From IMG/VR virus record IMGVR_UViG_3300044674_003315, positions 1 through 39,692 of that record: a stretch of DNA of 39,692 nt; one strand, given 5' to 3'. Position numbers and translations under genes: made by a program. Of the stretch, positions 7,705 to 30,002 are shown one piece after another. How positions within the stretch are numbered: the first letter of the stretch is position 1; each line of letters opens with the position of its first letter. This stretch comes from a virus. Lineage: Duplodnaviria; Caudoviricetes. The notes under the pieces were generated by a model that worked only from the letters and a program-made list of their open reading frames with translations, was not told where the DNA came from and ran no database searches.

Positions 7705-8377
7705 TGCTGTTTGGGTTGTAGTCTACAATTGCCTGCAAATGACCGCCAATGTTGTTAATCGTGACTGGCGATTTCCAATCGAGGCTCTCGATCCACGGTC
7801 TCACGTTTGCCTTCACGCGCTCCCAATCGTCCATGAGGTAATTGATGTTTTGAACGTAGATGCCGCGCCGCTCGGCGTTAACGTTGAGGATTGTTCCTGA
7901 GAGTCCGGCGACACGAAAGAAATCATCGATGCGTGTTTGTTCAATCACCGAAAGCCCGCCAGGAATCTGCTCGCTCCGTACTCTTTCTATACTTTGTGAA
8001 TGTAACTGTGAGCCTTTGTGACTGGGTTCCGTTTGGGTTTCTTGTGGGTTAGGGTTTGGGTTTCTTTGGGGCTTTTTAGGTCGTCCTCCCTTGCTTCCGT
8101 TTGCTCTCTTCACCTCTCGCAACTCCCTCTCCTTCAATAGCCTAGGGTTGACTCCATCAGGAAACTTCTCAATTAAAATAAAACGGCAATGCTCGAGCTC
8201 TTGTGGCGTTGTTCCCGTGATCCGTAACAGCGCAGCATCATCGGTAATCGGTACTGAGCCTGTATTCCACTGGTGCACCAGCAACCGAACGTAAAACCCA
8301 ACGGAAACCGAGTCGAAAGCTAAAGTAGAAGCTAAAAAGTCGCCCGTATAAAATGGGAACCATGGCGAATCAGACAT
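7610..8377 (-). CDS. Phage replication initiator (YdaU/DUF1376-like)
   Basis: N-terminal PWFPFYTGDFLAST...GFYVRLL..QW, NPRL..ERE and NGSKGGRP motifs; paired with the DnaC-like gene. Confidence 0.8.
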   Translation of the reverse strand: MSDSPWFPFYTGDFLASTLAFDSVSVGFYVRLLVHQWNTGSVPITDDAALLRITGTTPQELEHCRFILIEKFPDGVNPRLLKERELREVKRANGSKGGRPKKPQRNPNPNPQETQTEPSHKGSQLHSQSIERVRSEQIPGGLSVIEQTRIDDFFRVAGLSGTILNVNAERRGIYVQNINYLMDDWERVKANVRPWIESLDWKSPVTINNIGGHLQAIVDYNPNSSGNHSRRNQKSYDRNAGTANANKAGDYSKIG

Positions 8378-8657
8378 TCTCGCCGTGCGTTGGCAATTTG
8401 ACTCTGTCTAGTTGCCTGTTTCTTAGGAGCTTCCCACTGCTGACCATCTCTCGCATATGACAAGCGAAATCCTGACGCAGCTTAGAAAGCGGCACACTGT
8501 TACCTTTTAGATAACTCTCCCGGTAATGTTTCGCGCAGGAATCCCTAGCATCCGCCCACGTTCGCGATCTCTCCGCTTCTAGCACCGCGCGCACTGTCGC
8601 GTCTCGCTTCGCCTCTAAGGCTAATACTCGTGATTGTGGTAATAGTTGAGTGTCCAT
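8370..8657 (-). CDS. Hypothetical protein
   Basis: 95-aa ORF in operon context. Confidence 0.6.
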   Translation of the reverse strand: MDTQLLPQSRVLALEAKRDATVRAVLEAERSRTWADARDSCAKHYRESYLKGNSVPLSKLRQDFACHMREMVSSGKLLRNRQLDRVKLPTHGENV

Positions 8658-8667
8658 TTGTTCCTTT

Positions 8668-9042
8668 CTATGTCATTGTGATTTCAATTCTCGCCCCCTG
8701 CCCATCATCCCAAAACTTACAAATATGCCCTTCCGCGACTACGAAATCGTCCGCAAATAGCGCGTCCAAGATCGCCTTGTCTATGTTGTCTCTGTCAGGC
8801 TTCGCTCGGTGGGGTTGCCCCATTAGGGCCGCCCGTTTTGCCTTGGAATAGCTTTTAGGTATTGGCAGGTACGCTCTCCAAGAGACCTCCAAAGGGCGCA
8901 CAGGATGGCCTACACAGGCTGCACGCAATAAATCCTTAAACGCACGGTAACGCATCACCACTGGCCTGCGTTGCCATTTGTCTCGCTGTGTCATCCGGGG
9001 GGCTCCCATGGGGGCAATGTAGACAACGGCGGAGTAACTCAT
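8668..9042 (-). CDS. rusA: RusA-like Holliday junction resolvase
   Basis: PMGAPRMTQRDKW and KPDRDNIDKAILDALFADD catalytic motif. Start placed at ATG 9042, directly after the attC-derived repeat. Confidence 0.85.
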   Translation of the reverse strand: MSYSAVVYIAPMGAPRMTQRDKWQRRPVVMRYRAFKDLLRAACVGHPVRPLEVSWRAYLPIPKSYSKAKRAALMGQPHRAKPDRDNIDKAILDALFADDFVVAEGHICKFWDDGQGARIEITMT

Positions 9043-9085
9043 GTAAAGTGTATTTTGCTTATCGGGCCGGTGCCTCACCCTTGGC
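9043..9085 (+). mobile_element. attC-like half site (site 0; right arm, R' degenerate)
   Basis: 40/43 identical to 9473-9515 of site 1. Confidence 0.6.
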
Positions 9086-9469
9086 AAAGTCTAAGTCCTT
9101 TTGCATTGCTCTTTCATCTGCAGACTTAAAAAGTCTGCACTCGGGGCATTCATCCATTGCTGCCGCGCCCCACGGTAAAACTCCCCCCGTATCTATCGCC
9201 CCTGACCCGTCACACGTTCCGCAAAGCCGCTCGACTCGATACCCCCATTCGCGGGTCATCTGTGCGCCTTCCTCACAGTAGTAGCTCCCGCCCCAACATG
9301 TCGCGCCTGTGAACTTGTAGTAGAATCCAATCTCCCCACGGCATTTTCCCGTCACGCTGCAACGCCCGTCGCACTCGCGTAGCGAACGCGAAACCGGAGA
9401 ACAATCGGGTGGAGAGCAACCGCCCTCCCGCTGGGTGTTTTCGTCGTTGTTTTGCTTATTCGTCGTCAT
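9059..9469 (-). CDS. Cys-rich (CxxC, zinc-finger-like) cassette protein
   Basis: 136 aa with CGTCDGSG...ECPEC. Starts in the loop of site 1 and ends in site 0. Confidence 0.7.
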   Translation of the reverse strand: MTTNKQNNDENTQREGGCSPPDCSPVSRSLRECDGRCSVTGKCRGEIGFYYKFTGATCWGGSYYCEEGAQMTREWGYRVERLCGTCDGSGAIDTGGVLPWGAAAMDECPECRLFKSADERAMQKDLDFAKGEAPAR

Positions 9470-9522
9470 TAGGTAAAGTGTAGTTTACTTATCGGGGCGG
9501 TGCCTCACCCTTGGCGTTCTCC
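9396..9522 (+). mobile_element. attC-like recombination site 1 (127 bp)
   Basis: GGAGAAC (R'')...GGGTGgAGaGCAaCCGCCC / GGGCGGTGCCTCACCC...GTTCTCC (R'): an imperfect palindrome with three extrahelical bases, an unpaired spacer and a long loop. Confidence 0.75.
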
Positions 9523-10253
9523 AAAGAATCAGAGCTCTGTTCCGGTGAGGATTTCCCATGCGCCAGCAGCCACAGCCGGAATCTGTCCGTTGCCAATGGC
9601 TCGATTGCGCTCCAACCCGTTACCCAGCCCATCAGCCATTCTTGGAATTGGGGGCATGGTTGCCCTCCAGCCAGTTGCCACAGGCTTACGCCATAGCGCT
9701 GCCCTTTCGCGGATACGCTGCTCCCAGTTTCGTCCAAAGTCCTTTTCGACGGGTTGGTCAGAGGAGTGGGCAGCAATCCACATCCTCTTTCTCCGGTGAA
9801 GCAGTCCGGCATCGTCACCGCCGAGCACTCCCCATGCAGCATTATACCCCATTTCGGCCAGGTCTCCGAGAACGTGTCCAAGCCCTCTAGAAGCGAGGTT
9901 TGGGGAGTTTTCCACGAAGACGAAGCGGGGTTCCACTTCGCCAATGATCCGTGCCATTTCCCTCCAGAGACCGGAGTGTTCGCCATCTGTCCCTTCTCCT
10001 TTTTGGTTGGCGCAGGAGATGTCAGTGCATGGGAAACCTCCGCAGACGACATCTGCGATCCCCTTCCACGGTTTCCCGTCGAAGGTTGAGACATCACCCC
10101 AAACAGGGAACCATGGGAGTATCCCGTCTCGCTGCCGCTGGATGAGGACACTCCTGGCGTATGGTTCAAGTTCGACAGCGCAACAGGGTTGATGTCCGCA
10201 AAGGATGCCGCCGAGGATTCCTCCCCCGCAGCCTGCAAATAGGTGTAGCTCAT
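9489..10253 (-). CDS. Alternative-frame partner (beta-like subunit) of the cytosine methyltransferase
   Basis: 254-aa ORF spanning almost the whole MTase gene. It carries WPKWG, LLPTP and the motif-IX-like CPQFQEWLMGWVTGW that the MTase frame lacks. Confidence 0.7.
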   Translation of the reverse strand: MSYTYLQAAGEESSAASFADINPVALSNLNHTPGVSSSSGSETGYSHGSLFGVMSQPSTGNRGRGSQMSSAEVSHALTSPAPTKKEKGQMANTPVSGGKWHGSLAKWNPASSSWKTPQTSLLEGLDTFSETWPKWGIMLHGECSAVTMPDCFTGERGCGLLPTPLTNPSKRTLDETGSSVSAKGQRYGVSLWQLAGGQPCPQFQEWLMGWVTGWSAIEPLATDRFRLWLLAHGKSSPEQSSDSLENAKGEAPPR

Positions 10254-10260
10254 GATTCAT
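9529..10260 (-). CDS. DNA cytosine-5 methyltransferase (alpha-like subunit)
   Basis: Motif I LFAGCGG, IV GGFPC, VI ENSP, VIII HRRKRMW and X AIGNGQ. Confidence 0.9.
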   Translation of the reverse strand: MNHELHLFAGCGGGILGGILCGHQPCCAVELEPYARSVLIQRQRDGILPWFPVWGDVSTFDGKPWKGIADVVCGGFPCTDISCANQKGEGTDGEHSGLWREMARIIGEVEPRFVFVENSPNLASRGLGHVLGDLAEMGYNAAWGVLGGDDAGLLHRRKRMWIAAHSSDQPVEKDFGRNWEQRIRERAALWRKPVATGWRATMPPIPRMADGLGNGLERNRAIGNGQIPAVAAGAWEILTGTEL

Positions 10261-10275
10261 TTATCGGTTCTAAAA

Positions 10276-10647
10276 TTAAGAAGGAGAACAAGAAGTCGCA
10301 CCCAACCCTCCTTCGTCGGGTGGGTGGACATTGGCGTTCTCCTTCAATCGAACGGTTCCCGTGCCGTCGTTCCATTCTATCTCATACCACCGCTCTACCC
10401 ACTCCAAAGCCGCTCGGATGTGCGGAGCGTATAGCCTCCCGGACGATGTATCGAAATCGACCATATCCCATCCCACCCCATTCCACTGGAAGGTGAACCT
10501 GTCGTGGCATCCCCAGACGCCTGAATCGTTCTCGAAGATGACTTGGCCATCGTGGTCTGTTACGATGTGAGGCACGCCGCACAATGTAATCGAACGCGAA
10601 ACCGGAATACAATCGGGTGCCTCACCCTTTCCGTTCACCTGCCTCAC
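10276..10647 (-). CDS. Hypothetical cassette protein
   Basis: 123 aa with a GTGA-coupled start. The N-terminus is encoded by site 3 and the C-terminus by site 2. Confidence 0.65.
   Translation of the reverse strand: MRQVNGKGEAPDCIPVSRSITLCGVPHIVTDHDGQVIFENDSGVWGCHDRFTFQWNGVGWDMVDFDTSSGRLYAPHIRAALEWVERWYEIEWNDGTGTVRLKENANVHPPDEGGLGATSCSPS
10283..10342 (+). mobile_element. attC-like recombination site 2 (60 bp)
   Basis: GGAGAAC-aagaa-GTCgCACCCAaCCC-tccttcgtc-GGGTGGGTGGAC-attggc-GTTCTCC: attC-like size, two extrahelical bases, complementary R''/R'. Confidence 0.8.
10591..10637 (+). mobile_element. Collapsed attC-like site 3
   Basis: 10591-10619 is 27/29 identical to 9383-9411 and is fused via GGTG to the right arm GGTGCCTCACCCTT...GTTC; the central stem-loop is missing. 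Confidence 0.6.
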
Positions 10648-10853
10648 TTCCTCCAGACCTCCACGGCACCCTTAATATCCGCCGGAGATTGCACGATCCG
10701 GGCCTTGATGTTCGACCGACGCAGGTCCATCAGCGCATTCTCCGCCATCCACATCTCGCTCTCCAGGTATGGCCGAGTGACAGAGTGCAACCCTAACTTT
10801 TTCGCCGTCGTTGGCTTAATGGGCTTTCGCCCTCTTGGGTCTAGCGCGCTCAT
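10644..10853 (-). CDS. Hypothetical protein
   Basis: Start moved to ATG 10853 (ATGA overlap with the upstream stop). Confidence 0.6.
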   Translation of the reverse strand: MSALDPRGRKPIKPTTAKKLGLHSVTRPYLESEMWMAENALMDLRRSNIKARIVQSPADIKGAVEVWRK

Positions 10854-11059
10854 TTGTAATAAGTGAGTTTGAGTTTCAATGCTAGATTCAGCAGAGCTTC
10901 TTCCTCTGTCCCACCCTTGACCACAATTCCTGGCGCTGTTGCCTGCCAACGATCATCCGCCGCATCAGGCAAAGGCGCAAACGTGCTAATGCGGTGCTTA
11001 ACCATCCACTGAGCTTTCGGTGACAGGCTCGATACTTCGGCTTCGTCAAATAATTCCAT
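10850..11059 (-). CDS. Hypothetical protein
   Basis: 69-aa ORF coupled to both neighbours. Confidence 0.6.
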   Translation of the reverse strand: MELFDEAEVSSLSPKAQWMVKHRISTFAPLPDAADDRWQATAPGIVVKGGTEEEALLNLALKLKLTYYK

Positions 11060-11061
11060 GC

Positions 11062-11694
11062 TTACAATCCTTTTAATATTGGCATTATCTCTTTTCTCTT
11101 CTGTTCGTAGTAAACGAGGAAACGGTCCAATGCGTAACTAACTTTCTCCGTGTAGGAATCCCGCTCTACTCGCACAATGAGAGGCTTGAGCCCACGACAA
11201 TAGCTCATGTAATACCAGTAATCCAAGCCAGTGACGGCCAGAGCACCATGCACTTGCTGCTTATGCTTGTCTGGTAGTTTGCCCGCAATCAGATCCATTG
11301 CGTGATTCTTCTTTGTTGGGCACTTGATCTCTAGGCCCGCTAACGGCTCTTCTGAGCCTTCTTTATAGACCAGCCCGTCAGGCGAACACCCCGCTATTTC
11401 ATCGTCACGAGTAATAAACCCAACCTCTTGCACCCCGAATCCCATCTCAAGGGCGAACAGATCCCGCGCCTCTGGTTCTAGCTCGTTGCCTCTGTCGGTA
11501 TGGTAGTTCCCTTCGAACTTCACCTCGAATGGAGGTAGACATTCCGCGCATAGCTCAACTGCGAAGCCTCCCCATTGGGAGGAGTCTTTTCCCGTCGACG
11601 TGATGATTCGAGAAAATTCAGAAGCCGTTGGACGCCCCGAACGCACGGCAAACCATTGCTCAGAGCCCTGAGCCAAGTCTGGTAGAATTGTCAT
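11062..11694 (-). CDS. YqaJ/lambda-type exonuclease
   Basis: QGSEQWFAVR, TASE, RGNELEP, GCSPDG, LEIKCP and QQVH motifs. Confidence 0.92.
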   Translation of the reverse strand: MTILPDLAQGSEQWFAVRSGRPTASEFSRIITSTGKDSSQWGGFAVELCAECLPPFEVKFEGNYHTDRGNELEPEARDLFALEMGFGVQEVGFITRDDEIAGCSPDGLVYKEGSEEPLAGLEIKCPTKKNHAMDLIAGKLPDKHKQQVHGALAVTGLDYWYYMSYCRGLKPLIVRVERDSYTEKVSYALDRFLVYYEQKRKEIMPILKGL

Positions 11695-14994: not shown

Positions 14995-15206
14995 GAAGGC
15001 TTATTATTTTTTAGGTTTTCTTCCTGCTCGGCTTTCTTGCGCGCTCTGTATTTCCGCTGCGCCTCCGCCTTCTTCTCTTTGTTCGCCGCGTACCACGCTG
15101 CTTTCCTGGCCTGCTCCTTAGCTAGGTGCTCCTCGTCTTCAGCGAGCACCTCAGCGCGATAGCGCCTCATGTATTCCTTGAAGTAACTGTTGCGGTTTGC
15201 GGGCAT
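14991..15206 (-). CDS. Small basic helical protein
   Basis: 71 aa, K/R/E-rich; divergent from the integrase. Confidence 0.55.
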   Translation of the reverse strand: MPANRNSYFKEYMRRYRAEVLAEDEEHLAKEQARKAAWYAANKEKKAEAQRKYRARKKAEQEENLKNNKPS

Positions 15207-15251
15207 GTTCTTCTGTTGTTCTTCCCGTCCCGTATGGTATCAGGCGGTAGC

Positions 15252-16412
15252 ATGCAAGGAAAAAAAATCAAAGTTGGTACGGTCTCGCTGACCGTCTACC
15301 CGTGGCGACACCCATCGGGCCGCGACTATTGGCGATGGGCCTGGTATGACACTAACGGCAAACGCCGGTATGGAACACGCGCGACAAAGCAGGACGCCAT
15401 CACAGCAGCTCGCGCAAAAGCCCTAGAGATCCACAACGGCACGCTAGACCTCTCCGAAATGACGCCAGAGAGGCGCAGCCTAGTTGCTGCGTTTCTCGCG
15501 CTGGATCCTACGTGGAGCCATATCGAGACCCTGCGAAGGATCGCCGCTCGCAAGTCCGTCTTGCTAGCCGATGCCGTGACAGAGTTCCTAGAAATCAAAG
15601 CAGCGAACCAAGGCAGAAGCCCCCGGAATCTAATGACGCTCAGGAAGAACCTGACACCGTTGGTTGCGGATCTTGGATCTGTAAAGCTCGACCAGATAAC
15701 CGTTACCGAGCTGGACGCCTGGCTGTCCCAGATCAGACACCTGGCCGCGCGGACACGTCAGAACCGCCGAGCCTCCGTGGTGACGTTCTGGCGATGGTGC
15801 CGAGCACGTGACTATGTGCCAGACCGAACAACGGAAGCCGAGAAGATGGCTAAGCCGATCACGGAAAGAAAGGTTCCGCTGACGTACACGCCCGAAGAAA
15901 TGCAGATCTTGCTTGATGCCGTGCAGCCGCACTACCTCCCTTGGCTTGTGCTCGCTGGTTTCGCTGGTATCCGCAACGAGGAAATGCACCCCGTCCCGAC
16001 GAGTCGCAAGAGCCCGCTGCTATGGTCAGATATCGATCTCCAAAGGGGATTGCTCACGATCAGGCCCGAGACATCAAAGACGGGCCAACGGCGAGTGATT
16101 GAGATGCGCCCGAACCTCAGAGCGTGGCTGAATAAATGCGAAGGATCGCAACTTGGCCACCACAAGCCACCAGACAAGACGCGACACGGAGAGGATGCAG
16201 AGACAAAGCGCATCGGGAAACTAGTCGGAGGGTGGCGCAGAAACGCGCTCAGAGACTCTTTCATCTCCTACCGAGCAGCCCAAGCAGGGATTGCCAGGGC
16301 AGCGATGGAAGCCGGAAACTCAGAGAGCGAGGCGAAGAAGAGTTACCACGACGCGAAAAGTCAGGAAGATGGGGAAGCGTGGTTCAGCCTGATGCCCCAA
16401 GAGCGAGGTTGA
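15252..16412 (+). CDS. int: Tyrosine recombinase / phage integrase
   Basis: Arm-binding-like N-terminus, SAM-like domain, AGIRNEE (R), SKTG (K), NALRDSF (xxLR), AGNS and KKSY (Y); next to the tRNA-derived attP. Start placed at ATG 15252. Confidence 0.88.
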   Translation: MQGKKIKVGTVSLTVYPWRHPSGRDYWRWAWYDTNGKRRYGTRATKQDAITAARAKALEIHNGTLDLSEMTPERRSLVAAFLALDPTWSHIETLRRIAARKSVLLADAVTEFLEIKAANQGRSPRNLMTLRKNLTPLVADLGSVKLDQITVTELDAWLSQIRHLAARTRQNRRASVVTFWRWCRARDYVPDRTTEAEKMAKPITERKVPLTYTPEEMQILLDAVQPHYLPWLVLAGFAGIRNEEMHPVPTSRKSPLLWSDIDLQRGLLTIRPETSKTGQRRVIEMRPNLRAWLNKCEGSQLGHHKPPDKTRHGEDAETKRIGKLVGGWRRNALRDSFISYRAAQAGIARAAMEAGNSESEAKKSYHDAKSQEDGEAWFSLMPQERG

Positions 16413-18848: not shown

Positions 18849-19970
18849 CTAGGCGGCATACCACCCTTTACCGGTTCTCTGGTCCATAAGCCCTAGAAAG
18901 TATTTCTCGTACTGTGGTGCAATGGCCTCCAGGGTATAGCGTTCACCACGCTTCCTGCAGGCAGCAGGATCAATCTCGGCCACTCCCTCAACAGCCTCAA
19001 CGAATTCTCGAAACGTATTGCATCGGAACCCCACGCTTTCATCGTTGACTTCCGCATAAGCGCCCCAATTAGACGTGATCAGGGGAGTGCCTGAAAGCAG
19101 GGCTTGCACCTGAGTGCCCCCGAAGGGCTCCAGGTATTTCCCTGGGAGAATCAGAGCATGCGCTTTCGAGAAGGCTTGTCTCCGTGTCTCAATATCAGCG
19201 TACCCTTTCCAGTGGATAAGACTAGTCGGCCCGTTGGCCTTCTCATAATCTGCTTTGAATTCGTCCATCCCTTGCCCATAAACATGAAGCGGACGCCCCG
19301 CTTTCTCAGCTACCTGAATAGCAATGTCAGCTCCCTTGGCATCTCCTACCCTGGCCAAAAAGAGCAGATAATCCTCCTTCTCTTCACAGTAGCGATACTC
19401 ATCAGTATCAAAGTAATTGGGGATGACAGTATTCTGCCAGGACATATAGCCGATGCGTGCCCCGTCTAGACCATAGTAGGCATGCATAAGAGCGTGAGAC
19501 TCAAAAACTTTGTATGGTGCATAGTGCCCTGAGCTGTAGCCGATCCCAGGCTCGACCACGATCATATCAGAGTGCGCCTGAGCTATCGGTTTCAGGCCAT
19601 TCCAGAATGGGAGGAGGAAATCAGTGCAGGGTTCATTCGTCCAGAGTTTGCCTGCTCGCTTTTCCCATAGGGCCGCATTCGCTCGCCGATAGTATTCCTG
19701 ATAGGCCTCATCCTCGTGGCTGAAACTGAAAAGGTGAGTCTTCCAATCATGTTCCCCGTAAACCCTGTTAAATGTCTCCCTGGTAATCACGTCAACATGC
19801 TCTGAGCACTCAACATCCGAGTCAGGATGCCCGTAGTGGATGACGTGATGCCCACGCTCATGCATCATGCGGCAGAATAGACGGGCCTTTTGCGTGTAGG
19901 CACAGGCACAGAAATCTGCATTAGTGATGGTGTGAGGAACTCCGAGAACGTGCAGCCTATATTTCATCAT
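18849..19970 (-). CDS. GT-B (GT4-like) glycosyltransferase
   Basis: [18 protein letters not shown] and [18 protein letters not shown] donor-binding motif. Confidence 0.88.
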
Positions 19971-21613
19971 GTGAGTAAGCCAAGCAGATTGTATCCTGTT
20001 GCTGTCCCCTCATAAACCTTCTTAGTGTTCTTGTCTACGTAGAGCCCCGTGCCATTCCCAGTAGGTGGCAAAGAACTGGTTTCAAGTCCCATCCCTGTTG
20101 GCCCCATGGCTCCAGTGTCACCTTGGCTCCCTTGTGGTCCTGTGAGCCCAGTGTCGCCTTGAGCCCCTCCGGTGTCCTCTGTCCATGTGGGTGTGCCATC
20201 AGTGGCCACGTGTAAATTGTAGTCCTGCGCCTGGGCACCACCTGCAGGAGTGTCAGGACAATCGCAAACACATTCCCCTGTATCCCCCTTGCTTCCTTGT
20301 GGTCCCGTTAGCCCAGTGGGCCCCTGTAAGCCTGTTTCTCCTTTGCTTCCTTGTGCCCCACCTGGGCCTTGTGGTCCCGTTAGCCCAGTGGGCCCCTGTA
20401 AGCCAGTGGCTCCTTGTGGCCCTACTGGCCCTACTGGGCCTCGTGGCCCTGTCAGGCCGGTGGCACCAGTCGCCCCCTGCACTCCAGTGGCTCCTTGTGG
20501 CCCTACTGCTCCACCTGGCCCCATTGGGCCTTGTACGCCTGTCTCTCCTGTCTCTCCTGTGTCTCCTTTGCTTCCTTGTGCCCCACCTGGGCCTCGTGGC
20601 CCTGTCAGGCCGGTGGCACCAGTCGCCCCTTGTGTTCCGGTATCCCCCTTGCTTCCTTGTGGGCCTGCTGGGCCGATTGCGCCTTGTATTCCAGTGGCCC
20701 CTTGTGTTCCGGTATCCCCCTTGCTCCCTTGTGGGCCTGCTGGGCCTTGTGGGCCTGTTAGTCCAGTGGCTCCTTGAGTCGCTGCTGGCCCTGGTGCCCC
20801 TTGTGGCCCTGTTAATCCTGTGTTTCCTTGTGGCCCCTGCACTCCAGTGGCCCCTTGAGTCGATGCTGGCCCTGGTGCCCCTTGTGGGCCTACAGAACCT
20901 TGTGGCCCCTGCACTCCAGTGGCACCAGGCAGGCCGATGCCAGTGGCACCTTGTGGCCCTTGTGCTCCTTGAGGCCCTTGTGGCCCTTGTGGCCCTTGTG
21001 CTCCTTGTGGCCCTGGTGCCCCTGCCACCCCTGGAACCCCTGCTGCTCCATTGGCACCAGGCAGGCCGATGCCAATGTCACCTTTTGGCCCAGTGGCACC
21101 TTGCACTCCTTGTGCTCCTTGTGGCCCTGTCAGACCCTGGAGGCCTTGTGAACCTGGTGCCCCTGTCAGGCCGGTGGCACCAACTGTCCCGGTATCTCCT
21201 GGCAAGCCTGCCAGCCCAGTGGCCCCAGTGGCCCCTACAGCCAGCGTCGAGCGTCTAACATACTCTTCTAGAAAAGTCCGGTGAAGATCTTGCATGGCGA
21301 GAATCGTATTATCGTGATTCTCTTCGGCAGTGTCTGCGCTCAGCTTATCCCCTTCCTCGTAGGCGTATGGCTGGAGGATAGGCGTCAGCCTCTCAACTCT
21401 CACTGTGGACGTTGTGGGAATCGCCGCGTCGATGATTACGTAGCCGCCGCTCTCTTCGCCAGCGCCGATGACGGAGTGATTCCCAACGTAAGCAATGTTG
21501 TCCACAAGCACCCTAATATGCCCAGGGCTAAGGAACTTGAACGGCAGCGCATACTGAGAGCCAGTCGCGCCCGTTCCAACGTACTGTTGGTATGTTTCCT
21601 GAGTTGCTATCAT
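19967..21613 (-). CDS. Collagen-like tail fibre with T7-gp17-like N-terminal anchor
   Basis: N-terminal YALPFKFL...IRVLVD...VERLTP adaptor pattern, roughly 100 Gly-X-Y triplets, and a CVCDC motif. Confidence 0.85.
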
Positions 21614-21641: not shown

Positions 21642-24600
21642 TTATTCAGCGCGTTGTCTAGCACGCTCTTTCTTTCCGGCTTCCTCAGAATCATCGAAGG
21701 TGTTATCTATCACATCGAAAAGCTGATCGAAGACGTTAGCCGCCACCGCCACCGGGACGGCCCGCTCAGAAAGCAGCGCCGAGGCGTTGGCTGTGGCCAC
21801 TGCGGTCCTTTCGATTCTTTCGATAGGAGTAGAACCGAGATCGCGCTTAAATATATCTTCCAGTAAAGTTGTAATTTGCCCGAGCGCCCGATCTAACCCA
21901 TCCAACGGGCCGCCCTTAAAGCTCGACACGACATCGCGCACAAGCGGGAAGCCTTCCAGGGGGGCAAAGGACATTGCCCTCAGCGCAGCCCAAGCGCTCC
22001 AATGCTTATCATCGAACAGTTCATAGTCGTCGTCATCGCGCATATCCCACCAGGCCGAACGAATCAAATAGGCCATGCCGCCCGCGAGAACATTGGTAAA
22101 CATGGCCGCGCGCCAGAAATCTTTATCGCGCAGGATTTCCTTGGCCCGAGTTCGCTTTCTGCTTTGACGTGGAGCCATCGCGCGCCGCAGAGGCTCCAAT
22201 ACCATTGCGGCATTCTTGCGAGCATCGCTGGCAAACAACAGGAAGTAACGAGCAAAGGCATCGGGCTGCAGCTCCGTTAGGCTCTTGTCGGTAGACTCGA
22301 CGGGTTGAGCAGTCCGCCTGACCACGTCTTCAGCTTCGCGCATGGCTTGCGCCTTGGCAGTCGTCTCAGGCATGCCCGCCTCTGTCAGTTGCCTCAAGTG
22401 ATAATCGTAAGCAATCGCGCCAGACGCCGCTGTAAATCCGCCGTCCACCCGTCCTATGAGATCCATTAGCCAAAGCTCTCCTTGAGCCGCCCTTGTTGGC
22501 CGCCGATCCATGACCCGCGAAGCCGCCGCCCGCTGAGCCGGAGAAGCGCCCGCCTCGATGCGGCGGCGGATCATCGGAGAGTTCAAGAATTCCCGGTAAT
22601 GTCCCTGGCCCGTCATCATCCGGGCAAAGCCCGCCCAGTACGCTTGCTGACCGATGCGCGCACTTGATGCCATGGCCGCTGTCGATTGCACCATGAGCGT
22701 CCCGAGCTTGCCCGCAAGAGCGATCCTGGCGAGTCGACCCTGCAAACGCTTGGCTTTGTCGGTCGCCTCATCTTTACCGGCTGGATTCTGTAGGCCGTTG
22801 GACTCCATGACCTCGATCCACTTCAAGACCTTGCCCGAAGCTTCCTCCCCGGCACTTGACTTAATAGCGCCCTTCACTGCGGGATGGCCGAAGACTCCCC
22901 GGAGTTCCCTTGTTAATTCGGCGAATGCCTGGAAGTGCTCGGACTGCGCAACGTGCGACGTGTAGACGCCGAGCGCCGAAACTATGCGAGGCTCAGCCCG
23001 ATGCGTCTTTCTGGTCTTCAGCGATCCGTTACGCATACCCCCGGTAGGCATGAGCCCTTCTCCGAAAGCATCCATTTCCCTGTCGGCTCCAATGTGCTCG
23101 AAGTTGCCGGGCGAGTAATTGCCTATCTGAGGCAGAGCCACACCATACATACGCGAGAAAACCCGGTTCATCGGCTCCCAGCCTTCCGCGTATTCGTTGA
23201 GCATCCATTGCCGGATCTGCTTCGCTTCTTTGCTTAGGCTTTCCTCGATGGCCGCCAAGACCTCTTGATCGTAGCCCCACTTCTCCAGATTCTCCGCGTA
23301 CTGATCCTGAAGGGAAAGGAGGGACACTGTAAGCGCTTCCGCTTCCGTAAGCTCCACAAGCTCAGGCGTGCCCGGCTCGTAGTCGCCCGGTAACGCGAAG
23401 AATTCCCGCTCGTTCTTGTTCGTCTCGAAGAGTTGCTTGAGCGCGCCGACATCCGCAGGAGTGAATCCTAACGTGGTCGCTTGTTGGCTGTCCTCTATGA
23501 CTCGCAGCGCGACGTCGACCGGAACACGTCGCCCTGTTTGGGCACGCGATCCGTCCTCATTGCTACCGCGCTTAATCGACACAGTTACCGCTGGCTTGTT
23601 GTTGAGATCCCACATCCATTGCATGGCGTCTAGCTGGGAGGCTTTCCCGCCGATGGCCTCTCGCACGACTCTTTCGAGTCGCTTATTCATCACGATCATA
23701 GCATCTGTCTTCTGCGCCTGCGCGTCGCCAACGGCCTCGTTCCATCGCTTCACCAAGGGATGATTGACCCCGAGTATAGCTTCCAGGGTTTGCACCCACG
23801 AAATAAAGCCCATCGCTGTATCGTCGAGGCGCTTCAGCTTAGAGTCCCGCTTCCTGATCTCTGCGAGCTTCTTTCTGACGGTAGGTTGCCCAAGCTTGCT
23901 GATGATCTCGGAGCGTAGATCAGCCACCTCTTTGAGCCGCTGCTCTTCGACCATCCGCCACTTGTTCCGGTTCTCGGTAAAGACAGACTGAGCTTGATAG
24001 AGTGCTTGAGCCAAGCCAGCCGCATCCATGTGAGTCAGTGCCCCACCGAACGCGTCAAGGATCTGCTCTTGCTCGAAGAGATCCGCCATCCGCTCAGCGC
24101 TCTCAATATTCTCTTCCTCTTGTTGGAGTGTCGCGACCTTCGCGCGCTCGGCTTCAATCTCGGCCTCAGTGAGACCCGCAACCTCGCGAACCTGATCGAA
24201 GAAACGATGCCCAGCTTCCCCCAGGTTACCAGAAGGACGCTCGCCGCCTTTCATCTTTGGCGTGGCTTTATCGAGAATGGTTGTGAGATCCTCGCGATAT
24301 TGCTCAACCAGGTAGCGCTCAAGCTCTCTGTCGGCTCGCTCTACCTTCTCCCTCAGGTGAGCCTCGCGCGCCTCATTGGTCCGAAGTTTCGCCATCTTCG
24401 AGAAGCCGCCAACCTTTGCGCGGATTTCCGCAGGTAAGCCTAACAATAGAGCATCGAGAGAACGAATGCCCGTTTCTAGATCCTTAGTCGCCGTATTCTT
24501 CTGTCGGCGTGGTAGCGTCGCGAGTTGCTCGGCCTCCCAAGCGTCCGCTTCTTTCTGGGCAATGCGTTTCGCGCTGGCGATTTCCTGTCTGGCAACCGAT

Positions 24601-27600
24601 AAGGATTCCTTATTAGTTGCCGCTTCCCGCATGGCGCGCTCGATCTCTTGCCAGAGAGCGTCAGGGGTAGGGGAGGCGATCAGGCCGGAATCGAAAGCGG
24701 ATTGCGCGACGATATCAGGAGCGCTACTAGCGTCCGTGCCGCCAAAGAGGTGACCAGGAATTGCATGCGAGCCATCATAGTCGCCATGCATGCCGCCGAA
24801 CCCTGGCCGCCTGGCTGCCCTTGAGCGCGAGAGAATATTGAGCCGCACAGGCCCCTTGCTCTTCAGCGCGAGGGATTCGATCAGGGGATTAGAGCGGAGG
24901 CTTGCTAAGTCTTCTTGCTCAAGAATTGGATTGGCTTCATGGATGCGCTCTACTCGCTCTTCGATATCTGCCGCCTTGCGGATCTGCTTCTCTTTGCGAA
25001 TGGCGTTCTTTGAAAGTGCTTTGCTGACGTTGTCTTCAGAGCGGAGAGAGGAAGCGAGATCGGAGAGGCGAGCACGTGAGCGCTCGAAGGCTTCAAGGCG
25101 CTCTTTCGGCGCGCGTGTGATTCCGGCGACGCGTTGGGCGACGCGCTCTAGGTATTCTTCGGAAGAGATAGAGAAGGATGAACCAAGTCCGGCCTTTGGT
25201 AAGGCGCCTGAAGTGTCGTCGATAAATTCCCACTCATGAAACATGGCCAAATCCTTAAGATTCGACTCTTGTTTCCTACTTAACTTGTCACCTTGAGCGT
25301 AAAGCTTATTACCCTTCTGCCTGACAGCAACCCACCCTTGATCAATGGCGATATCGAATGCTTGAAGATCATCGGAATGCTCTATCATAGCGGCGAGAGA
25401 GATGGCGTTTTCTCTCTCGCCCTCATTCTCAATTTCATCAAAATCAATTTCTGAAGGATCTCCCGTTTCCGGCCAATCTAAATCATTGTCCTTTAATATT
25501 TCATACAAGGAGTCTTGCGGCGACTCCCCAACAAGTTGCTCGTAAGCCTCTAGATTGTGAGTGTTGCCCTCGCCCACGGGAACAAGGAGCCCAGTTGGCC
25601 CCATCCATGCCTTGGTTCCCTCTACGTCGTAGGTTCCCCCGTTTAGAGAATCATCCTCGACATCAAACGCCCCATCGCCGCCCATTGTGGCGTCATCAGG
25701 AATAAGAGAGACCGAGAACGTAATTCCTTGATCTTGTACTCGTTGCGCTACTCGTTCCAGGTATTCTTCGGATGAGACGCTGAAGGCTTCTTGCGTTGCC
25801 GGGTTGCCATTCTCTTCTGTGATCTCAATATCGGCGTCATCGAAAATCACATAGTTATAAGAACCTTCCCCATCGGATCGGCTGTTGCCGTCTAGGTATT
25901 TGATTCCTTTAATGCCTGCTGCTGCTAGGGCTTCGGAGGCTTCCTTGCCTCCCCCTCTGGGAAGAAAGTCGCGGTAATACTCTGCCCCGTCCTTCCCTGA
26001 GAACTCGGCGGCTGCATCAATCGTCTCATACATTTTTTTCTCTTCCCTCTTCCACCTCTCGGAATCAATCCAACCCTCCTCCTTTGCCTTCTTCAGTAGA
26101 GCCACCTCCGCATCGAGATTTCGCTCCACGTAACCGATTGCCTTCCTAACTAACTCACTCTGCTCACTCAGCGGCTGGTCCCAGTCAAGTAGCTCGTCCT
26201 GCTCGACGTTGAGGTCTACGGTGTAGAGGGAGCCTTGTTTAATGTTTAATCGGCTTTGATTAAATGCCTCTAGCTCTGCAATGGCTTGTTTTACCACTGA
26301 CACACTGCCGTCGGTTCCGCGCAACTCGGCTCTGCGCTTAGCTTTAGAGAGTCTTTCCTTTAATTTCTTTAGCGCAACCTGCTTATTCCCATTGGTAGAC
26401 CTTAATGCAGCACCCGAAAGCGAGGAAAGTCCCGTAATCTCCCCCCAATCTTGAGGTGTTTTTTCCCCATCAATAGTGGCTATATTAGCAGATAAAGCTT
26501 TTTGGTATCCTTTAGCCACATCCTCACTCTCCGCAAAGTAAAGCCCCCATCCATACGCCTGAGCGCCTTCGCCCGTGCCAATGTTCTTGGTGCTAAACTT
26601 ATCTACTTCATGAGGAGTCCCGTGAAACGCAGATATAGAGAATGATGCCGGGCCAATGACCGAAACGTCTCCGCCCTCGATTAGTTGAGTTTCTGGTGTT
26701 GTTTGGATTTGCGTGCGCCCAACGCTAACATTGGCTCGCTTACTTGATTTGTTCCAAACTCCGGTGCCATCGGCCATCTTATTCCGAAGGGCCATTGCTG
26801 CATCGAGGTTGTCTTTGCGCACCGGGGCAATGGTGACCGTCGGACCGTCACCGGTAGGCGACTGCTCTGTCGAAATCGAGAACGCAATCCCATCAGCTTC
26901 CTCTTCCGCCGTTGGCGGAATGTAATCAGGGTCAGCCTCCTTAACAACCGCCTCATTATGCTGGCGTTGAGGCTCCAGGCCTAACAACTGATCCAAAAAC
27001 TCTTGCTCGTTCTCTAGCTTGCCTTCTGCCCTGGCTCGCTTGAGCGCCGCCGCTGCCTTGAAGACGTCCTTGAAAAACGCGCGCGCAGCCCGAAGGAACG
27101 CACGGAACTTCCCGAGCGCCTTAGCTTCCGCTGGCGATGCCGCTGAGCGAATCATTTCTTCCAAGCCTGCCGTGATCGCATTGCCTGGTAGTCGCTTGTC
27201 GCTCTTACGACGAGAGACGAAGTCAGCAACGGCGATCTCAGAAACCGCTTCCCGGATCGCGTCAGGCGTCGCTTCTCCTTTAATGAACTTCTCACCAGTC
27301 GCTTCCTCGATCCCTTGAACAAATGACAGGCTTTCGCCTTCCGTGATGGTTCCATTCGCGAGCAGCGCTCGAAAGCGCGCTTCTACCGTTTCATGGATCT
27401 GCGCTTTAATCCCGCCGCCTTGGAAGACTTGGGAGGCTAAAGTTGCAACGCCCTCGCGAGTCTCGACCACGTTCAGCCCATTCACCGCCGCGACGATCTC
27501 ACGACCTACGGCGCCCGCGTCGCCTGTCGCCAAAGCATCAAGCTCAGCCCGCATGGTTTCCATGGATCGCGGATCATCCAAGATTCGCGTGACTTCACCA

Positions 27601-30002
27601 TCACGCGAGAGCGTGACCGCGCCCGTGTCGGATGCGGTCGCTAGTTCGCCCGTGAATGCGAGGCTTTCTGTTTCGGTTGCCGTAGATTGGAGGTAATCCT
27701 GCACGTCCACCATGGCTTGCGCCTCTCGCTCGGTAGCCGCTTGCCGCAGATCCTCACGCAAAGCCAATGCTGCTTCGTTAGAATCAACTGATAGCGATTC
27801 GCCAGACTCCAGCTCGACGCTCCAACCATCGGCATCGCGCGTGACTTGCCGCACCCCAGCCGCAGAATTGATAGCGGAATTGATAGCGGGATCATCTAGC
27901 CCTCCTTGAATATCCTTGATTGATTCGGCCCCTTCACCGACAACCGATATTTGCACCTGTTGGCCGTCAAAGGCGAGTTCGCCAGATGGTGTGTAAAAGT
28001 CGATGCGGTCTTCTTTATAGCGGCCAGGAATCGTATCGTCATATCGCGCAGAAAGTTGAGTTCCATCGGGGAGCGTGACAAGTAAGTCAGTGGTTTGCTT
28101 GGGTTTGATCCCGAGCTTGCGCGCCGTCTTGCGTGAGAGCGCGACCGAGAGCCCTTCTTCGAGCTGATTGTTCGCGTGACCGATGCCGTTGATCGAGTTG
28201 GTGTCGCCGTAAGGGTCAGCGTCATAGCCGTACTTTGTGGCTTGCGCCATGACTGTTCGACCAGTCCCTTGCTGAGGAATCGCAGACGGATCATAGCTAC
28301 CGAAGAACCCCGCACCTAATGCCGCAGGGATGATCATTGAAAGAGCCACGTCGGGCGCTTGGTCTTTGACTTCCTGCCAGATCTCCGCCCAATCAACATC
28401 AGGCATATCGGCCCCTAAACCCTCGAAGATATCTTGAACCGCAGCAGATACGCCAGGGTCCTGAAGTAATTCGATGCCTGTCTCAGCGCCGACGATAGCA
28501 GCACCCTTAGCGAGCGACTTTAGAGTCTTGTTCGATAGAGGATTCTTTCGTTGAGCTAGTTTCTTGAGCGCTCCCCCGATGCCGGGCACTTTCTTGAACA
28601 GTCTTAACTGGAATTTATCTAGAGCCACTTGCCCCGCTGCCGTGTAAACAGAAGCTTTCCTGGCGTCATCGCGTGAAGCACCCGCAGCAACCAGCTTGTC
28701 TTCTGCTTCAGATTGGAAAGCTAGCGCGATCGCCCCGACACCAACAAACGGAACCATATAGCTAGCCATTGAGGTCACGGTTTCAGCACCGCCATAAAGA
28801 ATATGTGCCCCCCACCAATCTTTGCGGACAGGATCGAGAATCCCCTTATCCGCATCTCGGATTTGTTGCAGCACCAGCCGCCCTTCCCGGAGTCGGTTCT
28901 GAGCGTCGTTTGCTGCTTGAGCCTGCTGGGCAGTGAGCTTAACGCGCCGACGACCTTTGGCGAATTGCGCCGCGTCGCCAAGCAAGCTAGCCCCTGGTGG
29001 CCTAGACAATTCTGTTTGACGTTCTAACGCCATTTCGTCGGGGTTGCCGATCAGATCCTCGAAGACTTCCTGCCCTTCCTTGAATGGAAGCTGCGCTTGT
29101 TGCTGGATGCTACCCGTAACCCCTGACGCCAAGCGCAAGAGTTGGCGACCCACGCTTTCACCAAGTTTCTCACCAACGCCTTTATCTTTCCCTCGCTCAT
29201 CGCCAGCAAGATGCTGAACCATGTTGTAAGTCAGCGCAGTGTCAGCAGGATGGAGCCCCATCATAGGGGCAATAGCCGTCTCGATAGGCTCGCCATTCTC
29301 TACAGCGTTGATGATCTTGTTTGCACGAGAGAGAGCTAAGTCTCGTCGTTGTCGCTGGACTCGGAACGCAGCTTTAGCTTCCTCGCTCCATTGGCTAAGT
29401 TTGCCTGCTGGGATGTTCTTGGAGTTGGCAGTAACCCAATCGAGGAAAGTCTCAGTACCTCCAGATCTCCGATTGTTCGACGGGTCGTGAGCTGCCTCTA
29501 TAATCGCGCTGTATAAAGAGTTCTCATCGGTGTATTTGAGCGCCTGGTTCTTACGATCTTCCTGGAAAGTCTTCGTGATATACGCATCAAACGCCGCGTC
29601 ATCCGTGCCGAGATCAGGCCGCTTGAGCTGCTGGCCTAGCCGCGTCCGGTAGGCTTTAGGATTGCTAGCCACGTCTACAGGATCAGCATCCCCAAACATC
29701 GACGAGAGCACAGAAGCCCGCTGGAACTCTCGGAACTCGGTAGCGTCACGCCATGAAGCCGCCTTGCCGTCACTGTGCTTCTTCCAGCCTTCCTCACCGT
29801 CCAGCCAGATTGATTGCGTCTTATCCCGCTGGTTAACGATTTCTTGAGAGCGGGATGGAAACAAAGGCAACCCCGCCGCTTCCTGCGCTTGTCGGTAGGA
29901 TTCGAGCTTGGTAGTCGCAACCGCGCGTTGGTCCTCTGTGAACCTTGGTAAGTTACGGCGAACAGTCAGCGCCTCGCGTTCTGTCAGTAGAGTGTCAGCC
30001 AT
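21642..30002 (-). CDS. Giant internal virion (ejection) polyvalent protein
   Basis: 2786 aa in the T7 gp16 position. Contains a 3D-like domain (YDDT...RIDFY) and an ART-like block (AFHGTPH...GEGAQAYGWGLYFAE...NYVIFDD). Confidence 0.85.
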   Translation of the reverse strand: MADTLLTEREALTVRRNLPRFTEDQRAVATTKLESYRQAQEAAGLPLFPSRSQEIVNQRDKTQSIWLDGEEGWKKHSDGKAASWRDATEFREFQRASVLSSMFGDADPVDVASNPKAYRTRLGQQLKRPDLGTDDAAFDAYITKTFQEDRKNQALKYTDENSLYSAIIEAAHDPSNNRRSGGTETFLDWVTANSKNIPAGKLSQWSEEAKAAFRVQRQRRDLALSRANKIINAVENGEPIETAIAPMMGLHPADTALTYNMVQHLAGDERGKDKGVGEKLGESVGRQLLRLASGVTGSIQQQAQLPFKEGQEVFEDLIGNPDEMALERQTELSRPPGASLLGDAAQFAKGRRRVKLTAQQAQAANDAQNRLREGRLVLQQIRDADKGILDPVRKDWWGAHILYGGAETVTSMASYMVPFVGVGAIALAFQSEAEDKLVAAGASRDDARKASVYTAAGQVALDKFQLRLFKKVPGIGGALKKLAQRKNPLSNKTLKSLAKGAAIVGAETGIELLQDPGVSAAVQDIFEGLGADMPDVDWAEIWQEVKDQAPDVALSMIIPAALGAGFFGSYDPSAIPQQGTGRTVMAQATKYGYDADPYGDTNSINGIGHANNQLEEGLSVALSRKTARKLGIKPKQTTDLLVTLPDGTQLSARYDDTIPGRYKEDRIDFYTPSGELAFDGQQVQISVVGEGAESIKDIQGGLDDPAINSAINSAAGVRQVTRDADGWSVELESGESLSVDSNEAALALREDLRQAATEREAQAMVDVQDYLQSTATETESLAFTGELATASDTGAVTLSRDGEVTRILDDPRSMETMRAELDALATGDAGAVGREIVAAVNGLNVVETREGVATLASQVFQGGGIKAQIHETVEARFRALLANGTITEGESLSFVQGIEEATGEKFIKGEATPDAIREAVSEIAVADFVSRRKSDKRLPGNAITAGLEEMIRSAASPAEAKALGKFRAFLRAARAFFKDVFKAAAALKRARAEGKLENEQEFLDQLLGLEPQRQHNEAVVKEADPDYIPPTAEEEADGIAFSISTEQSPTGDGPTVTIAPVRKDNLDAAMALRNKMADGTGVWNKSSKRANVSVGRTQIQTTPETQLIEGGDVSVIGPASFSISAFHGTPHEVDKFSTKNIGTGEGAQAYGWGLYFAESEDVAKGYQKALSANIATIDGEKTPQDWGEITGLSSLSGAALRSTNGNKQVALKKLKERLSKAKRRAELRGTDGSVSVVKQAIAELEAFNQSRLNIKQGSLYTVDLNVEQDELLDWDQPLSEQSELVRKAIGYVERNLDAEVALLKKAKEEGWIDSERWKREEKKMYETIDAAAEFSGKDGAEYYRDFLPRGGGKEASEALAAAGIKGIKYLDGNSRSDGEGSYNYVIFDDADIEITEENGNPATQEAFSVSSEEYLERVAQRVQDQGITFSVSLIPDDATMGGDGAFDVEDDSLNGGTYDVEGTKAWMGPTGLLVPVGEGNTHNLEAYEQLVGESPQDSLYEILKDNDLDWPETGDPSEIDFDEIENEGERENAISLAAMIEHSDDLQAFDIAIDQGWVAVRQKGNKLYAQGDKLSRKQESNLKDLAMFHEWEFIDDTSGALPKAGLGSSFSISSEEYLERVAQRVAGITRAPKERLEAFERSRARLSDLASSLRSEDNVSKALSKNAIRKEKQIRKAADIEERVERIHEANPILEQEDLASLRSNPLIESLALKSKGPVRLNILSRSRAARRPGFGGMHGDYDGSHAIPGHLFGGTDASSAPDIVAQSAFDSGLIASPTPDALWQEIERAMREAATNKESLSVARQEIASAKRIAQKEADAWEAEQLATLPRRQKNTATKDLETGIRSLDALLLGLPAEIRAKVGGFSKMAKLRTNEAREAHLREKVERADRELERYLVEQYREDLTTILDKATPKMKGGERPSGNLGEAGHRFFDQVREVAGLTEAEIEAERAKVATLQQEEENIESAERMADLFEQEQILDAFGGALTHMDAAGLAQALYQAQSVFTENRNKWRMVEEQRLKEVADLRSEIISKLGQPTVRKKLAEIRKRDSKLKRLDDTAMGFISWVQTLEAILGVNHPLVKRWNEAVGDAQAQKTDAMIVMNKRLERVVREAIGGKASQLDAMQWMWDLNNKPAVTVSIKRGSNEDGSRAQTGRRVPVDVALRVIEDSQQATTLGFTPADVGALKQLFETNKNEREFFALPGDYEPGTPELVELTEAEALTVSLLSLQDQYAENLEKWGYDQEVLAAIEESLSKEAKQIRQWMLNEYAEGWEPMNRVFSRMYGVALPQIGNYSPGNFEHIGADREMDAFGEGLMPTGGMRNGSLKTRKTHRAEPRIVSALGVYTSHVAQSEHFQAFAELTRELRGVFGHPAVKGAIKSSAGEEASGKVLKWIEVMESNGLQNPAGKDEATDKAKRLQGRLARIALAGKLGTLMVQSTAAMASSARIGQQAYWAGFARMMTGQGHYREFLNSPMIRRRIEAGASPAQRAAASRVMDRRPTRAAQGELWLMDLIGRVDGGFTAASGAIAYDYHLRQLTEAGMPETTAKAQAMREAEDVVRRTAQPVESTDKSLTELQPDAFARYFLLFASDARKNAAMVLEPLRRAMAPRQSRKRTRAKEILRDKDFWRAAMFTNVLAGGMAYLIRSAWWDMRDDDDYELFDDKHWSAWAALRAMSFAPLEGFPLVRDVVSSFKGGPLDGLDRALGQITTLLEDIFKRDLGSTPIERIERTAVATANASALLSERAVPVAVAANVFDQLFDVIDNTFDDSEEAGKKERARQRAE

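Follow-up and report, generated by a model that had tools for sequence, protein, structure and literature searches.

An array of integron-type cassettes without an integrase is found in the early operon of a phage, with its genes on the bottom strand relative to its attC recombination sites. Strain variants change cassettes at the R' boxes of these sites, as recombination by an integron integrase predicts. The window is the whole of virus record IMGVR_UViG_3300044674_003315 (39,692 bases), which carries terminase, capsid, tail and tyrosine integrase genes besides the early operon and belongs to a tailed, probably temperate phage. Our favoured reading, at a probability of about three in four, is that of a reversed integron-type array whose cassettes are likely shuffled by an integron integrase of the host, itself probably a member of Verrucomicrobiota.

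Anatomy of the array and its strain variants

Sites were sought with a detector for AAC and GTT that enclose, in this order, 5 nt, one arm bearing extra bases, its partner arm and 6 nt; the detector pairs the L boxes after removal of the extrahelical bases. On both strands of the 39.7 kb it reports exactly two sites, each with 11/11 pairs, and there was no match in 10 shuffled copies of the window. Two decayed outer sites complete the array, of which site 3 was identified when aligned to site 1 and to an intact site that heads the same gene in a metagenome locus, L432. On the plus strand, the sites are:

9396..9522, plus strand: site 1, intact attC; R'' 9396-9402, L'' from 9408, L' ending at 9509, R' 9516-9522, predicted crossover between 9516 and 9517
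10283..10342, plus strand: site 2, intact 60-nt attC; predicted crossover between 10336 and 10337; a 123-aa open reading frame (ORF) reads through the whole site
10604..10639, plus strand: site 3, collapsed attC; loop lost between two CACC tracts, R'' decayed, R' 10633-10639
9043..9092, plus strand: site 4, half attC; part of the loop, the L' arm and a dead R' in which the bottom-strand AAC is now TTT

Four attC-like sites had been counted in a preliminary description of this DNA; two of them are intact, and the others are the collapsed and the half site.

The R boxes of sites 1 and 2 (GGAGAAC and GTTCTCC) are complementary and contain the AAC/GTT core, the L boxes pair, and the central spacers of 5 and 6 nt are unpaired. 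Lengths of 127 and 60 bp fall within the attC range of 57-141 bp. The core, GAAC, departs from the RYYYAAC consensus, as it does in related bacterial sites. The trimmed minus strands of sites 1 and 2 fold with z-scores of -2.3 and -3.0, the untrimmed site 1 window with only -0.7/-0.9. Extrahelical bases stand on the 5' arm of the plus strand, at positions 16, 20 and 24 in site 1 and 16 and 23 in site 2, the last being T on the bottom strand; positions 16/(20)/23-24 are given for attC sites in the text of Nivina 2016 (PMC5027507). With the extra bases on the plus-strand arm, plus is the attC top strand, and the genes are read from the bottom one. That all ORFs in 9059-10647 lie on the minus strand, against the usual cassette orientation, had been noted before and is borne out by the ORF list and the polarity of the detector. 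The first extrahelical base on the bottom strand is C at both sites, where G is described as usual in the same text (PMC5027507). The same C occurs at 44/58 sites of the viral set and 17/22 bacterial sites (see below), and is a trait of the family rather than a disqualifier.

Equivalent crossover points are spaced by 430, 820 and 297 bp, corresponding to three cassettes. As in clusters of attC sites lacking integron integrases (CALINs), there are two intact sites, 760 bp apart, and the sole tyrosine recombinase examined is not IntI. The canonical cassette layout, a top-strand gene followed by its own attC, is absent, every gene being on the bottom strand. Nor is this a complete integron: there is no IntI, a promoter scan gave 3 sites vs 3.8 expected by chance, and attI and Pc were not searched by model. 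No match was obtained in an Rfam scan of 8500-11200 at E<=5, by blastn of site 1 against 50,697 GenBank phages, or when viral contigs were scanned for an exact pattern of 21 nt.

Four runs supplied contigs for comparison with 8300-11400 of the window. Variant contigs break at 9518-9519 and 10334-10335, within 2-3 nt of the crossover point G/TT in the R' boxes of sites 1 and 2. In one run (X4), one contig joins 9518 via 335 foreign nt to 10625, another joins 9114 via 422 foreign nt to 10334, and loose ends at 9519 match the upstream gene of L432 (28/30 letters, by eye). Loose ends at 10334 in runs X2 and X3 read Asn-Ala-stop with an ATGA overlap (by eye), and X6 has a loose end at 9114. Low cover of the methyltransferase gene between sites 1 and 2 in X4 and X6 was counted as absence only where a contig joins across. 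Joints of circular cassettes or of empty sites were absent from the four contig sets, in which rare forms are dropped.

L432 is the sole relative of cassette C in metagenome contigs and has a 95% identical core with different neighbours on both sides. Its break is at 10334-10335, in the R' box of site 2. In front stands an intact hairpin of the site 1 type with the same MTTNKQNNDENT leader and the same stop/start junction. The upstream gene differs and ends in NAKGEAPPR-stop in the Asn frame, i.e. with AAC read as Asn; another site lies behind, the identity ending at GAGAACG. L432 also contains, at 335-463, a second GAGAAC site that reads ENAKGDA-stop, lies about 120 nt before the next ATG and shows no clear partner arm; it is possibly a half site.

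Cassette exchange and polarity at related sites

For comparison, a GAAC set was compiled from viral contigs scanned with three patterns (109, 13 and 56 loci), from the loci of rusA relatives and from bacterial genomes scanned with the second of these patterns (91 loci). The 109 viral loci of the single-arm pattern proved to be mostly chance matches without a hairpin. Sites with fewer than 10/11 pairs or no C ahead of GTT were left out and duplicates fused, which took the set from 98 to 80, made up of 56 viral sites in 37 loci, 22 bacterial sites in 18 loci and 2 from the window. A second family, of short TAAC sites of proteobacterial type, was collected with a motif of its own, loops limited to 33 nt and no bacterial control; it numbers at least 124 distinct sites in viruses, found at 112 of the 127 loci among the matches listed.

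If a cassette was once circular and closed at G/TT, the R'' it carries is expected to agree more closely with the cassette's own first bases than with those of the current neighbour. In the GAAC set, outer R'' bases agree with the start of their own cassette at 66/72 positions and with the linear neighbour at 50/72 (18 adjacent pairs, including those of the window). Pair by pair, 12 are better, 1 is worse and 5 are tied (p 0.003), and perfect matches number 14 vs 3. For the TAAC sites among the matches listed, the figures are 37/48 vs 27/48 (12 pairs, p 0.07); the sites are related, so both p-values overstate independence. The detector is biased toward a match with the neighbour, i.e. against the observed result. 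In 41 pairs of near-identical sites, identity falls from ~100% to ~30% just past GTTC, and the gene behind R'' is unrelated too in 39 of them. All 22 pairs with a common cassette body, which are not independent of each other, diverge 1-4 nt after G/TT. A duplicated cassette is seen in L250 (1886-2630), where the same cassette start and attC occur twice with different neighbours and 50/50 identical flank bases.

Two other accounts of the exchange involve, at least in part, enzymes encoded by the phage itself:

11062..13289, minus strand: RecE-like exonuclease, second RecE-like ORF and RecT-like annealing protein (phrog_149/434, 7655, 561)
15126..16412, plus strand: phage tyrosine integrase (phrog_1; TIGR02249 17 bits vs cut-off 265)

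Repeats derived from attC could serve as homology linkers for the phage RecE/RecT or for replication slippage, the integron integrase no longer acting. Linkers have been proposed for phage mosaicism, and the RecE- and RecT-like genes are only 0.4-2.6 kb from the array. Sites 3 and 4 are decayed, the joints at 9114 and 10625 lie off the crossover, and the phage has no IntI. We nevertheless regard this as quite unlikely, because the breaks at sites 1 and 2 fall so close to G/TT and join unrelated attC sequences, because the R box matches the cassette's own start, and because the extrahelical pattern, in part a selection criterion, persists through sequences that differ widely. Site-specific recombination at that point by another tyrosine recombinase, i.e. 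the phage integrase or an Xer-like host enzyme, is more improbable still. It could draw on the integrase gene of the phage and on the C in place of G at the bottom-strand extrahelical position. Judged by its sequence, the phage enzyme is not an integron integrase; it has the low score given above on the IntI model and lies 4.5 kb away in the usual position for lysogeny. GAAC-family sites, on the other hand, adjoin a true intI in one bacterial locus (L455), and 4/5 Verrucomicrobiota genomes tested that have such sites encode IntI over the cut-off. Locus L454 has one site 7.7 kb from intI, and three other intI loci have none in the stretch examined.

The orientation of flanking genes was called by amino-acid log-odds; a gene-tiling call was rejected as unreliable on short GC-rich loci (37 '++' of 124 TAAC sites among the matches listed). 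Bacterial GAAC flanks (n=44) comprise 38 sense, 0 antisense and 6 undecided cases, and viral flanks (n=112) 73 antisense, 9 sense, 28 undecided and 2 too short. By locus, bacteria are sense in 18/18, and of 37 viral loci 28 are antisense, 1 is sense and 8 are tied. The bacterial sites are mostly in Verrucomicrobiota and Kiritimatiellia records, with a few elsewhere; the match at L164 may be due to chance. At L455, the gene that ends in a GAAC-family site is sense and divergent from the true intI, and this fixes the polarity rule. Matches to PHROG families were obtained for 13/94 bottom-strand ORFs vs 2/93 top-strand ORFs (both terminases), a skew that argues against a shadow-frame artefact. 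The bottom-strand matches are methyltransferases, Mom-like proteins, PAPS reductase-like proteins and a deoxyribosyltransferase. DNA-modification genes dominate the recognisable cargo at L148, L150, L151, L264, L265, L266, L270, L273, L274, L281 and L293, and comprise methyltransferases, Mom-like and PAPS reductase-like genes and a glycosyltransferase-methyltransferase fusion.

These counts bear on the view that the polarity was mis-called, such that the plus strand would be the recombinogenic one and the genes would be in ordinary orientation. The first extrahelical base is unusual, and strand choice is stated to vary among attC sites in the text of PMC5027507. The same rule, however, returns sense genes in every bacterial locus and in the complete integron of L455, and the cassette borders break at the R box that the reversed polarity predicts; mis-called polarity is thus nearly refuted.

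The TAAC flanks among the matches listed are 197 antisense, 18 sense, 27 undecided and 6 short. In phage TJE1 (L299), published by Qi et al. 2023 (PMC9892861), genes of normal polarity also read into the attC top strand, at 255-290 (NNEFKATKAP-stop) and 1016-1075 (NNEFDLTT-stop). The published CALIN phage ctTUS972 yielded 0 sites by the detector in the first 30 of its 34.6 kb.

Reading register and genes of the array

The genes in and beside the array are all on the minus strand:

8668..9042, minus strand: rusA-like Holliday junction resolvase (phrog_140, E 6e-21); ATG supplied by half site 4
9059..9469, minus strand: cassette A gene, 136 aa, Cys-rich, no family; begins in the site 1 loop and ends in site 4
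9467..9491, minus strand: stop (TAA 9491-9489) followed after 19 nt by the predicted restart (ATG 9469), both within the site 1 loop; Shine-Dalgarno motif absent
9489..10253, minus strand: cassette B, methyltransferase second (beta-type) frame, 254 aa (phrog_1008, E 5e-17); enters site 1 with AAC as Asn
9529..10260, minus strand: cassette B, main (alpha-type) frame of the C5-cytosine DNA methyltransferase, 243 aa (PF00145, E 4e-26; phrog_363); ends 6 nt short of site 1
10276..10647, minus strand: cassette C gene of 123 aa, no family; its GTG start and the upstream stop overlap as GTGA
10644..10850, minus strand: 68-aa gene bordering the array on the promoter-proximal side; retained in a variant with another cassette

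The peptides by which genes were said to enter the sites (ENAKGEAPPR-stop, FAKGEAPAR-stop, ENANVHPP... and VNGKGEAP...) are real, and all four are in one register relative to AAC. ENAKGEAPPR at site 1 ends the second frame of the methyltransferase, the frame recognised by Pfam having stopped 6 nt earlier. The preliminary description also placed the translation junction in the loop of the sites. This is correct for site 1, where the TAA and the next ATG are as listed, and for the half site, where the 136-aa ORF stops at 9061-9059, 16 nt ahead of the rusA ATG. It fails at site 2, where the 123-aa ORF reads both arms and stops at 10278-10276, the next starts (10260 and 10253) being outside, and at site 3, where the upstream 68-aa gene, in another frame, stops before the site and VNGKGEAP is the N-terminus of the gene restarted at GTG 10647. 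The 43-nt segment of 9473-9515 is indeed reused at 9043-9085 (93%, 40/43). It includes the codons of the L' arm, and "stop-to-start" is a misnomer for it, the actual stop-to-ATG gaps being 19 and 16 nt. The bases CTTTACCTA upstream of ATG 9469 (9470-9481) recur upstream of ATG 31529 (31530-31541), which hints at a common initiation context.

In the GAAC family, the longest frame of at least 40 codons is the Asn frame at 45 of 56 viral sites, other frames at 2 and 2, and none at 7; at bacterial sites the Asn frame is the longest open one in 3/22. It stops inside the hairpin at 53/56 viral vs 12/22 bacterial sites. An ORF that runs through R'' begins with an ATG within the site at 46/56 vs 6/22, stop and ATG lie within -5..+25 nt of each other at 41/56 vs 1/22, and the exact ATGA overlap is found at 24/56 vs 0/22. 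Entry frame and orientation, proposed earlier as a check in other phages, are thus both far from random in the same attC family. A Shine-Dalgarno-like word precedes 5/41 viral restarts, so reinitiation would matter. The exit frame is variable over the 56 viral sites (frame 2 at 25, frame 0 at 19, frame 1 at 7, none at 5).

One alternative accepts reversed genes and genuine IntI substrates but sees in the fixed frame and the stop/start arrangement a passive filter: cassettes that leave their gene lacking a stop or a start would be lost, without any selection for translational coupling. The absence of a junction from the site 2 loop fits this, as do the separate starts of the methyltransferase, the 19-nt gap at site 1, the unfixed exit frame and tails such as NAKGEAPPR, which look dictated by the DNA arms; the TAAC family, moreover, works without loop restarts (2/124 sites among the matches listed). 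It is an unlikely explanation of the overlaps and close restarts, which recur across unlike loops in viruses and are found at 0 and 1 of the 22 bacterial sites, and of the scarcity of Shine-Dalgarno-like words, given which reinitiation would be important.

The notion of a portable stop/restart module is supported by L432, in which the same MTTNKQNNDENT leader and hairpin head a different gene and another upstream gene enters in the same frame. Extending it to each site was too wide: the junction is present at 1/2 intact sites here, at 41/56 sites of the family, and at the two of 124 short TAAC sites just mentioned. The stop/restart module belongs to long-loop GAAC sites as a family and not to reversed arrays in general. 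That any inserted cassette stays expressed is likewise too general, as bacterial cassettes of the same family are sense (38/38 called flanks) and would land antisense. The in-frame fusions that had been suggested were absent, no viral site of 56 having a long ORF through the intact site and 40 codons beyond; long ORFs across the intact site were also found at 0/124 TAAC sites among the matches listed.

Both methyltransferase frames of cassette B are open in 9/10 relatives examined (14 found), at 31-82% identity. The 82% identical gene, in L433, is flanked by two other attC-like hairpins, the second of which it enters in the Asn frame. In another relative, L434, the main frame rather than the second ends last and reaches GAGAAC in frame (ENTR-stop); its upstream flank folds like an attC, its downstream flank does not. 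In M.EcoHK31I, according to the text of PMC2836561, a second chain is encoded in another frame inside a C5 methyltransferase gene. The phage gene resembles this in having a second conserved chain in another frame. It differs in that the frames are almost co-extensive (243 and 254 aa), in that the gene is an orphan phage cassette, and in that the beta frame continues past the alpha stop into attC. By analogy, the alpha and beta frames may work as a heterodimer.

The leader of the cassette A gene is common to the L432 gene, and the 136-aa core had 0 relatives in viral contigs. Atlas matches of the 136-aa and 123-aa proteins were all <0.9 and are leads only. Several relatives of rusA align from residue 1-2 of its 124-aa form. 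No convincing attC was found near 31 rusA relatives (two weak AT-rich matches), so the half site is not a trait of the rusA family. In X4 and X6 another gene is joined at 9114 with the same tail QKDLDFAKGEAPAR-stop ahead of rusA. The dead half site and 22 nt beside it thus act as a fixed C-terminal linker ahead of rusA, which is likely exchanged by homology.

The early operon runs on the minus strand in the order recT, recE, small genes, attC region, rusA, replication genes. At least half of the region's words are contained in 5/24 listed runs, from estuary and marine metagenomes, and just 13% and 7% in two RNA runs. Elsewhere in the window, a 2786-aa protein of the virion region (21642-30002) has a weak ART-PolyVal match (E 3e-5, under the cut-off) and is possibly a polyvalent protein, and a glycosyltransferase gene (phrog_3408) adjoins a collagen-like tail fibre gene at 18849-21613.

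Proposed mechanism and known systems

As a consequence of the reversed polarity, the start of a gene lies in its own attC or shortly behind it, and the gene crosses the crossover at the far end and takes its last codons and stop from whichever attC comes next. In the long-loop GAAC family, the crossover AAC is read as Asn, with a stop within the hairpin and the next ATG beside it, such that swaps among phage-type cassettes would keep every frame closed. Neighbouring genes would likely be translationally coupled, with ribosomes stopping in the loop and restarting, as the text of PMC8876359 describes for short ORFs in attI1 and attC. The decayed outer sites would exchange by homology or slippage instead. 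The array itself could have been founded by insertion at a GTT-type genomic site, which according to the text of bioRxiv 2022.09.11.507474 occurs in either orientation. We suggest a host IntI as the moving enzyme because the phage integrase is not IntI and because 5/6 phage attC sites tested recombined with IntI1, as reported in the text of Qi et al. 2023 (PMC9892861). The attC family points to Verrucomicrobiota as the likely host.

Several observations weigh against a reversed array moved by host IntI. Besides the relatedness of the sites compared and the first extrahelical base, the X4 joints at 9114 and 10625 lie off the R' crossover, at decayed outer sites. The gene calls came from simple scripts, and a stricter composition filter places 32 of 55 viral sites in the Asn frame, 1 and 2 in the others and leaves 20 uncalled. 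The annotated genes of TJE1 are on the top strand, the normal polarity. Host genes, too, read into GAAC sites on the top strand (L455), so coding arms are not specific to phages. Of 120 TAAC genes among the matches listed, 57 stop at the core TAA, 35 are in the Asn frame, 1 is in the third frame and 27 are uncalled, and the rarity of restarts inside TAAC sites stems in part from the capped loop length. In the window, the junction lies in the loop at just one of the two intact sites, where a 19-nt gap takes the place of the overlap. The host call rests on the attC family, and capsid relatives in that phylum occur in 21/301 genomes, at 37-40% identity.

Two speculative advantages of the reversal can be named. 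It may prevent expression of sense-oriented host cassettes from the phage operon, a point of weight if, as the text of bioRxiv 2024.07.02.601686 has it, many integron cassettes are anti-phage. It may also make the recombinogenic bottom strand the lagging-strand template, for which higher excision is stated in the text of PMC5371416. A more far-reaching proposal is possible, with the odds rather against it: phages of several phyla would run a private cassette pool on host IntI, the host and phage pools being mutually silent. Host cassettes, many of which are anti-phage, would enter the phage operon in reverse, and phage cassettes, with methyltransferase, Mom-like and other genes for DNA modification, would fit in through a standard frame and an inbuilt restart. 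In this view the attC would be at once a recombination site, a translation connector and a workshop for new cassettes, with one leader-hairpin on unrelated genes.

Integron textbooks tie the choice of attC strand to gene orientation, and two narrow patterns have given at least 180 distinct sites in viruses, at most of which the genes are reversed. Should these cassettes be moved by host IntI, phages would have a second path to mosaicism, site-specific in kind, by which genes for DNA modification (counter-defence) could also spread, to be set against the storage of anti-phage genes by integrons (bioRxiv 2024.07.02.601686, as far as its text goes). Reversed attC sites explain odd N- and C-terminal peptides of many hypothetical phage proteins, and the near-identical attC sites on unrelated genes are snapshots for the question of cassette origin. 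The locus is a handy test case because its natural variants already show swaps.

Among known systems, the CALINs of phages (17 in 10,705 phage genomes, described as rare; Qi et al. 2023, PMC9892861) share with the array an attC cluster, the lack of an integron integrase and a DNA methyltransferase as cargo. The text of that paper describes typical arrays and, in the parts consulted, is silent on antisense genes, reading frame and starts in loops. The chromosomal integrons of Verrucomicrobiota have the same GAAC core, spacers of 5 and 6 nt, and extrahelical bases of the same position and identity. Host genes may run into these sites because the core is without TAA. They differ in that host genes are on the top strand and end in their own attC, in that intI and the array start are present, and in that the bottom-strand stop/restart is found in only 1/22. 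Class 1 integrons, as described in the text of PMC8876359, have ORF-11 and ORF-17 in attI1 and short ORFs in attC in which the frame crosses the crossover and the neighbour supplies the stop, and termination-reinitiation carries ribosomes past attC hairpins. These are short top-strand helper peptides, whereas here the bottom-strand arms encode the ends of the cargo genes. Weinberg 2017 concerns another motif in the part of its text consulted. No published description of reversed, frame-keeping cassettes was found in the literature searched, and the figures and Dryad annotation of Qi et al. could show such an orientation. In conclusion, attC clusters of phages are already known (Qi et al., 2023), and the array of this phage represents a new, reversed and frame-keeping variant of integron cassette arrays.

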